A stretch of DNA of 39,213 nucleotides, from NCBI GenBank assembly GCA_037137755.1, contig JBAXJR010000022.1, positions 1 to 39,213 on the forward strand, in the 5' to 3' direction. The notes beneath the pieces are model-generated. The model searched no databases. It was given only the letters and a program-made list of their open reading frames with translations, and was not told where the DNA came from. Within the stretch, counting starts at the first letter, position 1, and every line of letters starts with the position of its first letter. The translations under genes and the position numbers were made by a program. Source of the DNA: Methanomicrobiales archaeon. GTDB lineage: Archaea; Halobacteriota; Methanomicrobia; Methanomicrobiales; Methanospirillaceae. Positions 2,520 through 6,207 of the stretch are shown here, piece by piece.

Positions 2520-3140
2520 ATGCTGAACAGCATCGACGTTGCCCGCGTTCTTGATATCCTCGGAAACAGGAACCGGAGGCGGATTATAGAACTCCTACGG
2601 GAGAGACCCTGCTTTGTCACCGAGATCTCTGACCGGCTTACGCTCTCCCCGAAAGCAGTTATCGAGCACCTTCAGATGATGGAACGGGAAGAGATACTTT
2701 CATTCCAGATGGATGAACGGCGGAGAAAATACTATTTTATTTCCCACGATATCAGCATCGAAGTAAACCTGCTGAAACAGGAAAATTCTGAATTTTCAAT
2801 GGATCTTGATGCAGGGACTATATTCCAGCGGTCCCTCCATACCATGCGAAAGATGGTGCAGGCAAGGGATGAACTTGTTACGAGGGCAGGGCACCTCGAT
2901 GACGATATCGAGGAACAGATGCGTGAGATTGCAAAAAAGGGAAAAAATATCCTTCAGAACGAAACAGAACTCAACCTGGTGATTGCACTATCCCATTATC
3001 CTCTCACGCTTACCGACCTTGTCGAGCTGACCGGTGAAGATGAGGCCGGAATCATCCCGGTTGTCGAAGGCCTGGTCGCCAGGGGAATCGTTGAACAGGA
3101 AGGCCTGGAATACCGCATCAGGGATATGTATGCCGGATGA
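2520..3140 (+). CDS. ArsR-family wHTH transcriptional regulator, HSR1/Phr-like archaeal heat-shock regulator
   Basis: LDILGNRNRRRIIELL...PKAVIEHLQMME...RRKYY N-terminal wHTH, then a coiled-coil region and a probable second C-terminal wHTH. Confidence 0.85.
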   Translation: MLNSIDVARVLDILGNRNRRRIIELLRERPCFVTEISDRLTLSPKAVIEHLQMMEREEILSFQMDERRRKYYFISHDISIEVNLLKQENSEFSMDLDAGTIFQRSLHTMRKMVQARDELVTRAGHLDDDIEEQMREIAKKGKNILQNETELNLVIALSHYPLTLTDLVELTGEDEAGIIPVVEGLVARGIVEQEGLEYRIRDMYAG

Positions 3141-3552
3141 TGAAAACCCGTACGAAGAATTTCTTAAATCCCTTGCAAAAATAGTAGAGGACATTATGAA
3201 GGACATGCCCGACGAGGAGCATGCAAGGTTTATAGGTTGCACGATCATTGCCGGGGGAATCCCGGGAACTCCTCCGTTTTTCCAAGGAATGGAAGTCAAC
3301 GACAGGGAGATCAGGTATGAAATCATCGAGTCCGAGGAACGGATCTATATAACCACCCAACTTCCACCTGACATAAAAAATGCCCCGTATGCAGATATTG
3401 ACCCGGATTCGGTACGGATTTGTATTGATGACCGGGATGCCCTGATCCCGATGCCGGTACCTCTCGATATCATCCACAGCTTTTACATTGTCAGGCACGG
3501 GGTGATGGATATTGTGCTGAAAAAAAAGCCCACCTACCCGGACATCAACTAA
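3130..3552 (+). CDS. Hsp20/alpha-crystallin-like (CS-domain) small protein
   Basis: ATG 3130 overlaps the regulator's 3' end; YEIIE..ERIYITTQLP ... VRHGVMDIVLKK resembles the Hsp20 C-terminal NGVLxI strand. Confidence 0.65.
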   Translation: MPDDENPYEEFLKSLAKIVEDIMKDMPDEEHARFIGCTIIAGGIPGTPPFFQGMEVNDREIRYEIIESEERIYITTQLPPDIKNAPYADIDPDSVRICIDDRDALIPMPVPLDIIHSFYIVRHGVMDIVLKKKPTYPDIN

Positions 3553-3591
3553 TTAGGGCATCAGAGACGCAAAAATACAGGTAATCAGGGT

Positions 3592-3608
3592 TCCCGGGTC
3601 CCCCGGGA
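3592..3608. terminator. GC-rich hairpin between convergent genes
   Basis: TCCCGGG-TCC-CCCGGGA in the 65-bp gap between the stops at 3552 (+) and 3618 (-). Confidence 0.35.
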
Positions 3609-3617
3609 GGTACAAGT

Positions 3618-5801
3618 TCAGACCTTCACATGGGCATCCGTCGTTGCCCACTCGGTAATTTTCCGCTCTTTCCTGTCATATTCATGGAACTGGCGGAGCG
3701 AGACCGTGAGATCCCTGGTAAATGCGAAATACCCGATCTGGGTACTGCGACAAAGTTTCATCGCCATGTCCATCAGGCCACGGGGGTCAGGTCTCGATTC
3801 ACCCAGCCAGATATGGAAGATATTTCCCCCGTCCACGATCGGGAAGAAGACATGTTCAATCTCCATGCGCTGTGCGAGGGTAATCCTCGCCCCGGGGGCG
3901 ACATGCGTGCCGTTCGTATAGTAGATGGGGAGGTCCCGTGTGGTCCCTATCTTATCCAGCGAACCTTCTAGATCGCCCTTGATAACCTTCTTAGCCTGTT
4001 CACGGAAGGCCTTGTTCAGCAGGTCTGATACAGCAAAGCGCTGACCTGTCGTTTCGGCCGGCGTTCTTGCGAGTGCGATGGTCATCCCGTGTTTTTCCGA
4101 TAATGCCCTTGCATAGAGTTCCATCTCGGTCATCGCCCGCACGGCGAGTTTGAATGCCTCTTTCGACTCGTGCAGCTGTGAACCCACATGGGCCTGCACC
4201 ATCTCATTCACACCGACGATTCCGATCGTGTAAACCAGTCCCTCGAGGTCCACGGCAATTGCACCACGTTCTCCCGTGGCCGGGTCTTTTGGCCGCTGCA
4301 TCGCAAATGGCATCCGCCCATGTGCCCGGATAATTTCAAGCCATCTTCGCTTGATATTGAAGACCTCGACTGCCACGTCCATCATCGCACGGAGTTCCGA
4401 AAAGAGCCGCCCGTCATCACCTTCGGCCTTATACGCAGCACGAGGGCAGTTTAAGGAAACGACCTGCCAGGAACCCATCGAAAAATGCCGGCCATCCTCG
4501 AAATACAACTTCTTATCAAAATCAGAGTCATCTTCCGCAACACAGGAGAACTGGTACGCACAACACTGGTAACAGGAGATGCCCTTCCCCGCACCGCGAT
4601 ACCCTGGTATCTGGTTATCATAATAGGGTGTGCCGAATTTCGAGGCCAGTTCAAATGTAAGAAGGTAGAGTTCGCTATAGGTAGGAAGATCGGGATGTGT
4701 TTCGTTATATTCGGTCATCTCCTTCATAAATTCCGGTTCGATGCTGATTTCAGGTTTCGGGAAGGAAAATGGCTTACCCCAGGAGTCCCCTTCGAGCATG
4801 ACCTCCATGAGCGCCTTGAAGAGGAGCCGCACCTCACGTTCGAACTCCAGGTAGGTGCGTTTTGGCGCAGTTTTTCCATCCCAGATCTTTCCCTTGTAGA
4901 CACAGGGCTTGTCTTTCCATAGCGCAGGTACACCCGGGCATAGTTGAACAGATGAAAATACGAGCTGACCTCCACGTGCAACCATCATCTGGGTCATCTC
5001 GTAGACAAACATCTGCATCATCTGCTTGATCTCGCTATAGGGCATTCCTTCGAAGTAGGGTGCCAGGAATGTCAGGAAATTATAATACCCCTGCCCTCCT
5101 GCGAAATTTGTCTGGGCGCTCCCGAGTGCCTTGACCGCATGGAGCACGGCTACTTCTGCGCGCCTTGCCGGACCGGCCACTGACGCTTTTGTTCCGTTGC
5201 CATCCGGCATGAGCCCGTAGTAAAAGAAGTACCTGAGGTCCCAGTCCTGGCAGAACGGGCGTGTCCCGAAATACTCAAGGTCATGGATATGAATATCCCC
5301 TCTCAGGTGGTGGTCAGCAAGTTCGGGGGGCAGTTGAAGGAGATATTGCTCCTTGCTGATCTTGTCCGCCTTTTTCTTGTGAGAGGTCTCAGCGTTTTCC
5401 TGGAGGTTGGCATTGTCTTTTGCCTCAAATCCACGCCCCACATCGATAAGATGCGCATCATACACCGGCGTACCTACCCTGGTGCAGACATTCCGGTATT
5501 GTACAAGACCCCGCTCAAGGAGCGAGATATTCATTATTTCGCGTATCAACGGCCCTGAAAGCGATTGGAGCCCCATCGACAGAATCCGTCGTTCAACAGA
5601 CAGCGCGATCTCCCGGGCGAGTTCTTCATCCGCGCTCTTGTACCCGTAAAATGTCTCGACGAGACGGGTTTCCTCCACTATCTGGCGGACAATCCGCTCC
5701 CGGTCCCACTCTATAATATGCCCGTCCGATGTCCGGACTGGTGGCAACGGGGAGATGAATATGCCATCAAGGGTCTTCTGGCGGGTATCGCGCTTCTGCA
5801 T
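3618..5801 (-). CDS. nrdD: Anaerobic (class III) ribonucleoside-triphosphate reductase, lacking the C-terminal Zn/glycyl-radical domain
   Basis: N-terminal ATP-cone (VRTSDGHIIEWDRERI), H.RGDIHIHDL, RPFC, FAGGQG, FSFPKP, finger loop YQCCAY, TPAE, YYTNG, GGNIFHIW; no CxxC pairs or R(I/V)TGY at the C-terminus. Confidence 0.92.
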   Translation of the reverse strand: MQKRDTRQKTLDGIFISPLPPVRTSDGHIIEWDRERIVRQIVEETRLVETFYGYKSADEELAREIALSVERRILSMGLQSLSGPLIREIMNISLLERGLVQYRNVCTRVGTPVYDAHLIDVGRGFEAKDNANLQENAETSHKKKADKISKEQYLLQLPPELADHHLRGDIHIHDLEYFGTRPFCQDWDLRYFFYYGLMPDGNGTKASVAGPARRAEVAVLHAVKALGSAQTNFAGGQGYYNFLTFLAPYFEGMPYSEIKQMMQMFVYEMTQMMVARGGQLVFSSVQLCPGVPALWKDKPCVYKGKIWDGKTAPKRTYLEFEREVRLLFKALMEVMLEGDSWGKPFSFPKPEISIEPEFMKEMTEYNETHPDLPTYSELYLLTFELASKFGTPYYDNQIPGYRGAGKGISCYQCCAYQFSCVAEDDSDFDKKLYFEDGRHFSMGSWQVVSLNCPRAAYKAEGDDGRLFSELRAMMDVAVEVFNIKRRWLEIIRAHGRMPFAMQRPKDPATGERGAIAVDLEGLVYTIGIVGVNEMVQAHVGSQLHESKEAFKLAVRAMTEMELYARALSEKHGMTIALARTPAETTGQRFAVSDLLNKAFREQAKKVIKGDLEGSLDKIGTTRDLPIYYTNGTHVAPGARITLAQRMEIEHVFFPIVDGGNIFHIWLGESRPDPRGLMDMAMKLCRSTQIGYFAFTRDLTVSLRQFHEYDRKERKITEWATTDAHVKV

Positions 5802-6070
5802 TATACACCTGCAAGGAATTGAGTGACGTTATCTTCCCGGACTGTACCCCCGGAAAACAGATCATGGGATGTGAGGAAGTGGTCACCATTCTGGAGGACG
5901 GGGGCCTCGCTGACAAAGATTCCATTAATACGGAGTTCGGTCAATGACTCGGCCGTGGACATGTCCCTTTCCTGAAACGGGATCCCGTGTCCTTTCAGAT
6001 ATTCTTTTAATAGTTCGCATTTGGGACAAAGCTCAAGTGTATAGATGGTCAGTTGCGGTGAATCTGCCAA
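5801..6070 (-). CDS. nrdH: NrdH-like glutaredoxin/redoxin
   Basis: IYT...CPKC, APVL cis-Pro motif; TTG start with GGGGGTGA SD; TAATG 1-nt overlap with nrdD. Confidence 0.85.
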   Translation of the reverse strand: MADSPQLTIYTLELCPKCELLKEYLKGHGIPFQERDMSTAESLTELRINGIFVSEAPVLQNGDHFLTSHDLFSGGTVREDNVTQFLAGV

Positions 6071-6207
6071 TATATCACCCCCCTATCTCATTTACAATAG
6101 TGCTTAATTTTAAAAAAGTGTTCGATAGTTCTCCGGGACTAAAAATTAATTAATTCCCTACCAGACACAAAGGTATAACCATGCAGGAGAAAGGATGGAC
6201 CTAAATC

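Follow-up and report, generated by a model that had tools for sequence, protein, structure and literature searches.

A class III ribonucleotide reductase of Methanomicrobiales with its glycyl-radical domain encoded by a separate gene

We analysed a contig of 39,213 nucleotides (hereafter the window; JBAXJR010000022.1 of assembly GCA_037137755.1, here contig C22 of genome G000) from a Methanomicrobiales archaeon. It carries an nrdD gene for a class III ribonucleotide reductase (RNR), which lies directly downstream of a gene for an NrdH/glutaredoxin-like redoxin and faces a convergent open reading frame (ORF; Table 1). The 727-aa NrdD has the catalytic body of the enzyme without its zinc/glycyl-radical domain. 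We found that domain in a 120-aa protein encoded on another contig of the same genome, and the gene for the activase NrdG on a third. These and the following observations lead us to propose, with a probability of about 0.88, that the enzyme is an obligately two-subunit class III RNR composed of the 727-aa core and the separate 120-aa radical subunit.

Table 1 Genes of the divided NrdD system and features next to nrdD. Positions without a prefix are those of the window.
Feature	Position	Strand	Description
nrdD core gene	3618..5801	-	727-aa class III RNR catalytic body, no zinc/glycyl-radical domain
Small radical subunit gene	G000:C4:30736-31098 (= L002:1489-1851)	-	120 aa, NRDD C-terminal part
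nrdG activase gene	G000:C21:21798-22538 (= L003:1471-2211)	+	TIGR02495 match of 157 bits (cut-off 131.15)
NrdH/glutaredoxin-like redoxin gene	5801..6070	-	89 aa, CPKC, TTG start
Region upstream of the nrdH-nrdD pair	6071..6207	-	A/T-rich stretch and GGGGGTGA motif
Spacer between nrdD stop and end of convergent ORF	3553..3617	.	65 bp, CCCGGGGGACCCGGG palindrome and T-run
Convergent ORF	3034..3552	+	172 aa, no Pfam family at E ≤ 0.01

A catalytic core without a radical domain

The core reaches 443.8 bits against the Pfam family NRDD (PF13597; cut-off 26.2) and 473.4 bits against TIGR02487 (cut-off 326.35), and both matches end early, covering profile positions 1-511 of 562 and 1-529 of 581, respectively. 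Against the structure of P. copri NrdD (8p23), the protein aligns to chain residues 12-674. Its catalytic motifs are RPFC at residues 181-184, with the barrel cysteine C184, the finger loop YQCC at 411-414, with C413/C414 and without an upstream Met, and TPAE at 580-583. In an alignment of 24 NrdDs, both split and fused, C184 and C414 do not vary, and C413 is near-invariant. The last conserved strand spans residues 694-702, and the C-terminus reads ...IGYFAFTRDLTVSLRQFHEY, followed by about 20 more residues and the stop, with the 25-aa tail after the strand being poorly conserved. Past residue 683 the translation has neither a Cys nor an RxxGY motif, and the R(V/I)xGY glycyl-radical loop is absent from the entire 727-aa chain.

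This agrees with the original prediction, made from the letters of the window, which described a 727-aa NrdD with its barrel residues kept and its radical and zinc domain gone. That prediction also listed the ATP-cone as kept, which holds in part: residues ~22-102 do match the family, but divergently, with 18.3 bits (E 0.0034) against a cut-off of 25.8. In relatives at 78-80% identity, a precomputed PF03477 (ATP-cone) match is present.

Among the 120 homologues listed, most full-length cores have 725-732 aa. In many relatives, the NrdD core is interrupted in frame near profile positions 60 and/or 263, which would fit one or two inteins. Such frames have 1673-1743 aa in G004, G010, G052 and G058 and ~1200 aa in G002, G003 and G038 (overall range 1161-1743 aa), and one core relative, P0199, carries Intein_splicing and LAGLIDADG domains.

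The radical domain at a second locus

The genome of the window is a draft of 106 contigs, 90.56% complete and with an estimated contamination of 1.6%. Searching it with the NRDD profile returned exactly two matches, the core and a short frame on contig C4 (profile 517-562), which is the gene for the 120-aa protein. Pfam places residues 56-117 of this protein at NRDD positions 509-562, and in an alignment made with a profile of its family, residues 77-116 correspond to residues 697-737 of P. copri NrdD. Because the core takes up NRDD 1-511 and 8p23 residues 12-674, the two proteins are complementary halves of one NrdD.

In order along its chain, the small protein has CHTC...CPKC...CPLDHCHC, then CPLC-x4-CPEC, then GSHDVVQISRVTGY and WNAGKQQELKDR. 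Its radical loop is SRVTGY, with Gly95 as the candidate radical residue. The Cys-rich motif before the loop, probably of zinc type, occurs on the small subunit only, with C71, C74 and C79 invariant and C82 near-invariant. Ahead of CPLC-x4-CPEC lie ~70 N-terminal residues, in which further Cys/His motifs of zinc-knuckle type are conserved.

Both this gene and nrdG had been forecast: the original prediction expected a Cys-rich ORF with SR(I/V)TGY and an nrdG elsewhere in the genome, none being present in the window, and genome searches located the former on C4 and the latter on C21 (157 bits), with no NrdG-like profile match on C22. The G+C contents of C4, C21 and C22 are 0.507, 0.492 and 0.492, compared with a genome mean of 0.498 (standard deviation 0.020). 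A search for class I or II RNRs (PF02867) in the 90.56% complete draft found none, so that the other RNR that might have supplied deoxynucleoside triphosphates (dNTPs) was not seen in G000.

The only other glycyl-radical domain in G000 is in an enzyme resembling pyruvate formate-lyase (PFL) on contig C52, where it lies inside the enzyme's own 899-aa frame. The gene for this enzyme (C52:1747-4239 (-)) adjoins a gene for a radical S-adenosylmethionine activase-like protein (C52:670-1398 (-)), on a contig of 14,982 bp and G+C 0.491. A PFL-like glycyl-radical enzyme is unusual in a methanogen.

Existing resources recognize the small protein poorly. There was no PF01228 (Gly_radical) match at E ≤ 0.01 in the protein itself (P0003), and no NCBIfam model reached its cut-off on it; homologues are named 'oxidoreductase', 'RPABC4/Spt4', 'hypothetical' or after the full enzyme. 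The N-terminus matches zinc-ribbon families. A Foldseek search of the PDB with a stand-alone AlphaFold2 (AF2) model of the protein gave no match at E ≤ 0.001, the best matches being generic zinc-ribbon proteins (Nop10, Spt4/RPABC4-like and an eIF2-gamma knuckle), whereas P. copri NrdD ranked 48th, with 30 aligned columns; for want of a significant match, the N-terminal module stays described as 'generic zinc ribbons'. A search for longer proteins gave six hits, each over only 34-36% of the small subunit, namely its radical part, and did not reveal a fused NrdD with the N-terminal module. PriA-type helicase domains are present in a 612-aa protein from a 3306-bp metagenome contig (P0244), whose C-terminal NRDD match shares 88% identity with the radical part of the small subunit; the protein may be a genuine fusion or a gene-calling artefact.

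The split point lies inside the zinc site

To map where the chain is divided, we compared the core and the small subunit with fused NrdDs of sister families (L012, L015-L018). The fused proteins read ...GYFAFTKDMTVC..FH...C..C(G/S)S....SR(V/I)TGY, with FTKDMTVC in the upstream part. Within the order, cores of six families have ...GYFAFTRDLTV(S/C)L(K/R)QF.EY, then 17-20 unconserved residues, and the small subunits have YCPLC...CPECGSHDV.Q(I/V)SRVTGY. In the window, the core ends after ...FTRDLTVSLRQFHEY and a variable tail, and the small subunit resumes with CPLC-x4-CPECGSHDVVQISRVTGY. Core residue Ser701 stands at the position of a Cys in the fused relatives, and FH is found at 705-706. The cut therefore falls inside the zinc site. 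On one side of it, the core retains what appears to be a decayed first half of that site; on the other, the small subunit consists of the second CxxC pair, a new CPxC pair just upstream and the ~70 N-terminal residues.

The divided gene is found throughout the order

To assess how widespread this arrangement is, we searched 61 genomes of the order with the NRDD profile and read the tail counts row by row. Matches were present in 56 genomes, and in all 56 the core match ends at or before position 519 and a separate tail match lies elsewhere (start 462-524, end 560-562, frame 42-242 aa). Core and tail share a contig in 18 genomes, where they are never less than ~89 kb apart, and relatives with single-contig genomes have the same pattern. 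NrdG (E ≤ 1e-25) was found in exactly the same 56 genomes. The remaining five form one genus, g18, which has lost core, small subunit and NrdG together; all five carry a PF02867-type RNR. As these genomes are related, the joint presence in 56 of 56 and joint absence in 5 of 5 is a pattern and not a statistic. In g18 (G024, G030, G042, G048, G054 and others), a 737-745-aa PF02867-type RNR takes the place of the NrdD system.

None of the 61 genomes has a full-length copy of this type of NrdD. The sole full-length match in the order is an extra copy in G003 (C1:590703-592373; profile 1-560; 569-aa frame, 565 aa, ending ...RRVSGY), a fused, cone-less protein of another NrdD type. G046 has two copies of the core 14 kb apart (C1:285076-286791 and 300796-302511) and one tail gene. 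A class-level sample, all of it from the same order, gave an NRDD match in 92 of 101 genomes, and the nine misses were all g18; this sample did not enter the tail counts. Named database homologues are from Methanomicrobiales, including Methanoregula(ceae), Methanofollis, Methanolacinia, Methanospirillum and Methanogenium.

Outside the order, 69 of 102 genomes searched in the phylum had an NRDD match. Among the matches listed, the C-terminal ones share the frame of the barrel and reach profile end 560-562; two matches, in G184 and G129, end at 517 and 528, at a contig end. Four genomes of genus g57, from another family (G148, G155, G166 and G201), have a stand-alone tail ORF of 118-131 aa (for example, L020:967-1320 (-)) besides two full-length NrdDs. 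These ORFs share the CPxC-x3-CPxC...SRVTGY architecture and differ in their N-terminus, and they may be a true 'spare-part'-like case or possibly a prophage gene.

Phylogeny and selection

In a maximum-likelihood tree of 24 NrdDs (quick method, rooted with a long-branched outgroup), the 16 split cores form one clade (Shimodaira-Hasegawa-like approximate likelihood ratio test (SH-aLRT) 100) within a clade (99) that also contains five fused relatives. The core is 54-70% identical to those five, and 66 invariant columns are kept. The most economical, and most likely, history is that the gene was split once, at the base of the order.

Both halves are conserved. The small-subunit family comprises 338 proteins at E ≤ 0.001 among 343 candidates, and 32 aligned members have 19 invariant and 30 near-invariant positions in 120 columns, including C29, C32, C41, C44, C53, C60, H62, C71, C74, C79, C82, H85 and SRVTG. 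From this conservation of Cys and His, each small subunit would be expected to bind two to three Zn. The ratio of nonsynonymous to synonymous substitution rates (dN/dS), computed after excluding four rows involving G011, was 0.06-0.17 in the four pairs with estimable dS; most other between-family pairs were saturated at synonymous sites. Neither of the refuting cases named in the original prediction, a pseudogene under relaxed selection or an assembly error, was seen for nrdD, which is strongly conserved, and its close relatives within the order are all without a full-length copy of this NrdD type. The suggestion in the original prediction that the trait might extend to all Methanomicrobiales is borne out by every NrdD-bearing genome sampled.

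Predicted assembly of the two chains

The original prediction had also proposed co-folding the two chains. Our co-fold combined the small subunit and residues 126-727 of the core with custom alignments and three Zn ions, in three runs with three controls. The interface score ipSAE was 0.86, 0.84 and 0.83 (median 0.84), compared with 0.00 for the best of the three controls; the mark for this score is reached by 116 of 157 solved complexes and by 2 of 215 mismatched pairs. Any two runs shared 93% or more of their contacts, and the predicted local distance difference test (pLDDT) score of the partner was at least 83.

The predicted interface involves core residues 414-415, 581-584 and 693-708 and small-subunit residues 86-120. 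The contacts with the lowest error are those between core 698-702 and small-subunit 86-91, and they would restore the hairpin severed by the fission. The radical segment, residues 86-120, is predicted to contact core residues 414-415 (finger loop), 581-584, 623-627, 635-642 and 661-672. Residues 28, 33-37, 42-43, 58-69 and 77-80 from the N-terminal part also touch the core in the models, and the added module may therefore act as a docking clamp.

Genomic surroundings and transcription

The redoxin encoded upstream of nrdD matches the Pfam family Glutaredoxin with 28.7 bits. Its TAA stop overlaps the nrdD ATG as TAATG, and 6 nt upstream of its TTG start lies GGGGGTGA, a ribosome-binding-like motif. 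We presume this NrdH-like redoxin to be the reductant of the core; the overlap, the 89-aa ORF and the Glutaredoxin match all fit the CPKC NrdH coupled to nrdD in the original prediction. At the other end of nrdD, the 65-bp spacer leaves no room for a radical domain, as had been pointed out from a distance of 65 bp to the convergent gene, which is the distance to the ORF listed in Table 1. That ORF, as called, overlaps an ArsR-type regulator gene (2520-3140) by ~107 nt.

The small-subunit gene is flanked by pyrF, which encodes orotidine monophosphate (OMP) decarboxylase, and by a CbiZ + zf-like gene, with a deoxyhypusine synthase gene beyond pyrF. The CbiZ + zf-like gene (L002:589-1470 (-)), downstream of the small gene, encodes an adenosylcobinamide amidohydrolase fused to a Cys-rich zf-like domain (PF04071). 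At least three other families also have a CbiZ-like gene immediately 3' of the small gene, and at least one of these families has pyrF 5' of it.

Metatranscriptome contigs from one study match L002:1433-1672 (0 differences) and 1651-1876 (0-1 differences) and together span the whole small ORF, the first extending 37 nt into the cbiZ-like gene. They give a weak hint of transcription, because contigs of this kind do not reveal strand or level and may derive from carried-over DNA. RNA runs X17 and X19 gave only 90-99% matches, which come from relatives and are uninformative on this organism.

Comparison with known enzymes

The two proteins together have the parts of single-chain NrdD/NrdG systems such as those of P. 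copri (8p23), T. maritima (4coi/4u3e) and phage T4 (1h78), that is, the same barrel, finger-loop cysteines and dedicated NrdG, as well as the same R(V/I)TGY loop followed by WN.GK.ELKDR and a CxxC zinc motif before the loop. The closest fused forms, with the 54-70% identity to the core noted above, come from sister families in the same phylum. Unlike in any of these, the zinc/glycyl-radical domain forms a polypeptide of its own, whose gene is ~89 kb or more away where both genes are on one contig, and unlike in the fused NrdDs it bears ~70 extra N-terminal residues with conserved Cys/His motifs. To our knowledge, all characterised glycyl-radical enzymes have the radical glycine on the catalytic chain. 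The pair described here would be a class III RNR by function in which the loop that NrdD carries on its own chain is provided only in trans. A survey of the RNR family gives the radical domain of class III as C-terminal (PMC9669993).

Small free-standing carriers of a radical glycine include GrcA/YfiD of E. coli and, alongside it, Y06I of phage T4. Like the predicted small subunit, GrcA docks into a large body and is activated by that enzyme's activase (PMC13450708). GrcA replaces a damaged domain that PFL itself has, whereas the core has no radical domain and the small protein would therefore be obligatory. The two also belong to different families, the small subunit to NRDD and GrcA-type proteins to Gly_radical (PF01228). 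The parallel with GrcA/YfiD drawn in the original prediction thus holds for a separate radical protein and fails for a spare part. According to a 2026 review, spare-part radical proteins are known only for formate lyases, and the existence of others is 'yet to be determined' (PMC13450708). Our full-text searches, in which subscription journals largely and supplements were outside the scope, found no description of a split NrdD, and the two-gene design of a whole order appears to be undescribed.

In P. aeruginosa, the genes for the RNR chains NrdJa and NrdJb are reportedly adjacent. These chains form a split class II RNR in which both are needed and the NrdJb piece mediates dithiol exchange (PMC4520616). 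Phage RNR genes can also be divided: in Aeromonas phage Aeh1, an endonuclease gene is inserted between the pieces of nrdA, and in Thermus phage phiYS40, nrdJ is split into consecutive ORFs 12 nt apart (PMC3653736). The system described here resembles these in that a catalytic chain is divided into two polypeptides, here with both ORFs conserved, and resembles NrdJa/NrdJb further in that the C-terminal piece serves a distinct mechanistic step in P. aeruginosa. It differs from them in RNR class, none of theirs being class III, and in that its pieces are unlinked. NrdJb is not a radical carrier, whereas here the detached piece carries the candidate radical glycine.

Mechanism and alternative explanations

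We infer assembly of the two chains, a radical on the small subunit, activity and the role of the reductant, and the mechanism that we propose is conditional on them. The radical S-adenosylmethionine activase NrdG, encoded at the third locus, would generate the radical on Gly95 of the small subunit. On docking, strand 86-91 of the small subunit would pair with core strand 698-702, bringing the Gly loop in beside C413/C414 of the finger loop, and catalysis would proceed as in single-chain NrdD, with the NrdH-like redoxin re-reducing the active-site cysteines. After the fission, the small subunit would have gained its new CPxC pair and its N-terminal docking module. The original prediction, that the radical domain is a separate polypeptide and NrdD a two-subunit enzyme, is in agreement with every computational test that we made.

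Several points weigh against this proposal. The evidence for assembly, radical formation and activity is computational. The co-fold may reflect likeness to the fused enzyme and not binding, and its pass may be memory, because single-chain NrdD structures exist; in addition, custom alignments and riding Zn ions lie outside the calibration of the tool. Folded alone (mean pLDDT 78.8), the small subunit has its radical segment as a long helix with pLDDT 56-74 and not as an NrdD-like loop. The core and small-subunit genes are unlinked, with no shared regulation seen, and the RNA contigs, being without strand or level, are compatible with DNA carry-over. An RNR missed by a 106-contig draft of 90.56% completeness is possible, for G000 alone. 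Some rows of alignments A1/A2, from minus-strand references, lack a start codon, which leaves the first sequences unaffected.

Of the alternatives, one is that the core uses another source of thiyl radicals, for instance an adenosylcobalamin-type cofactor, and that the small NrdD-like protein serves another role. The small gene lies directly upstream of the CbiZ + zf-like gene in several families, and a single RNA contig bridges it to the cbiZ-like gene by 37 nt, both of which would fit such a switch. We nevertheless consider it very unlikely, given that no B12-binding family matched the core in the Pfam scan, that the core still has C184, C413/C414 and its strand for pairing with the radical domain, that the co-fold predicts the Gly loop at the finger loop, and that core, tail and NrdG occur together in 56 of 56 genomes and were jointly lost in 5 of 5. 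It is also highly improbable that the small protein is an optional spare part of the GrcA/YfiD type for an enzyme owning a radical domain. Such a small stand-alone radical domain does serve PFL (PMC13450708), and g57 has an ORF of this kind beside two full-length NrdDs, but the core here has neither a glycyl motif nor a zinc site, G000 has no NRDD match beyond core and tail, and its remaining glycyl-radical domain belongs to the PFL-like enzyme on C52.

The halves might alternatively be rejoined by split-intein protein trans-splicing, or the gene be read through or frameshifted. Inteins do occur in the cores of many relatives, P0199 among them, but at two other sites (profile breaks at ~60 and ~263), whereas just 25 residues, poorly conserved, follow the last conserved strand of the core, and the small-subunit N-terminus has no intein or Hint family at E ≤ 0.01; read-through is impossible because the halves are unlinked, and this explanation is barely credible as a whole. 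That the truncation is a pseudogene or an artefact of assembly or binning carries next to no weight with us: the draft state of the genome and its 1.6% estimated contamination would allow it, but cores of 725-732 aa recur in most of the 120 relatives listed, the split is also present in single-contig genomes, the G+C contents of C4, C21 and C22 are near the genome mean, and the catalytic residues are invariant. For these reasons we rejected the spare-part, trans-splicing, read-through and pseudogene readings, and the obligate two-subunit enzyme is our preferred explanation.

Viral relatives and implications

Relatives of the small subunit are also encoded by viruses. We found 24 IMG/VR contigs (L031-L054) with such genes, at 41-73% identity and many with the N-terminal module. 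The tail match is present in five larger viral records (L034-L037 and L046; 38-90 kb, two of them estimated to be 100% complete), and no NrdD core was found in these five. In L034, the small gene lies between genes for a Cas4-domain exonuclease and a helicase-methyltransferase, with genes for a Sak4-like annealing protein and a single-stranded DNA-binding protein (SSB) nearby. Viral delivery of the radical subunit alone fits the idea of this subunit as a consumable or limiting part.

More tentatively, and with odds that we place somewhat below even, the small subunit may be an exchangeable radical cartridge, the fission may be adaptive for methanogens exposed to transient oxygen, and viruses of these hosts may carry the cartridge gene alone, as part of their DNA-metabolism modules, to raise the dNTP supply of the infected host. 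Because oxygen cleaves glycyl-radical enzymes at the radical glycine, only the 120-aa protein would be lost in this design. If so, the 727-aa body, which in relatives reaches ~1700 aa before its inteins are removed, could be re-armed by a fresh, separately activated subunit, and the system would be the first obligate, virus-exploited counterpart of GrcA outside the formate-lyase family.

Collectively, our results point to an order of methanogens whose sole RNR appears dependent on a detached radical subunit, a 120-aa protein that is inconsistently named and without an NCBIfam model. The divided enzyme offers a natural system for studying the access of the activase to the radical domain, the docking and undocking of that domain, and subunit exchange in relation to oxygen tolerance, and the viruses that carry this subunit alone suggest a new kind of auxiliary metabolic gene.

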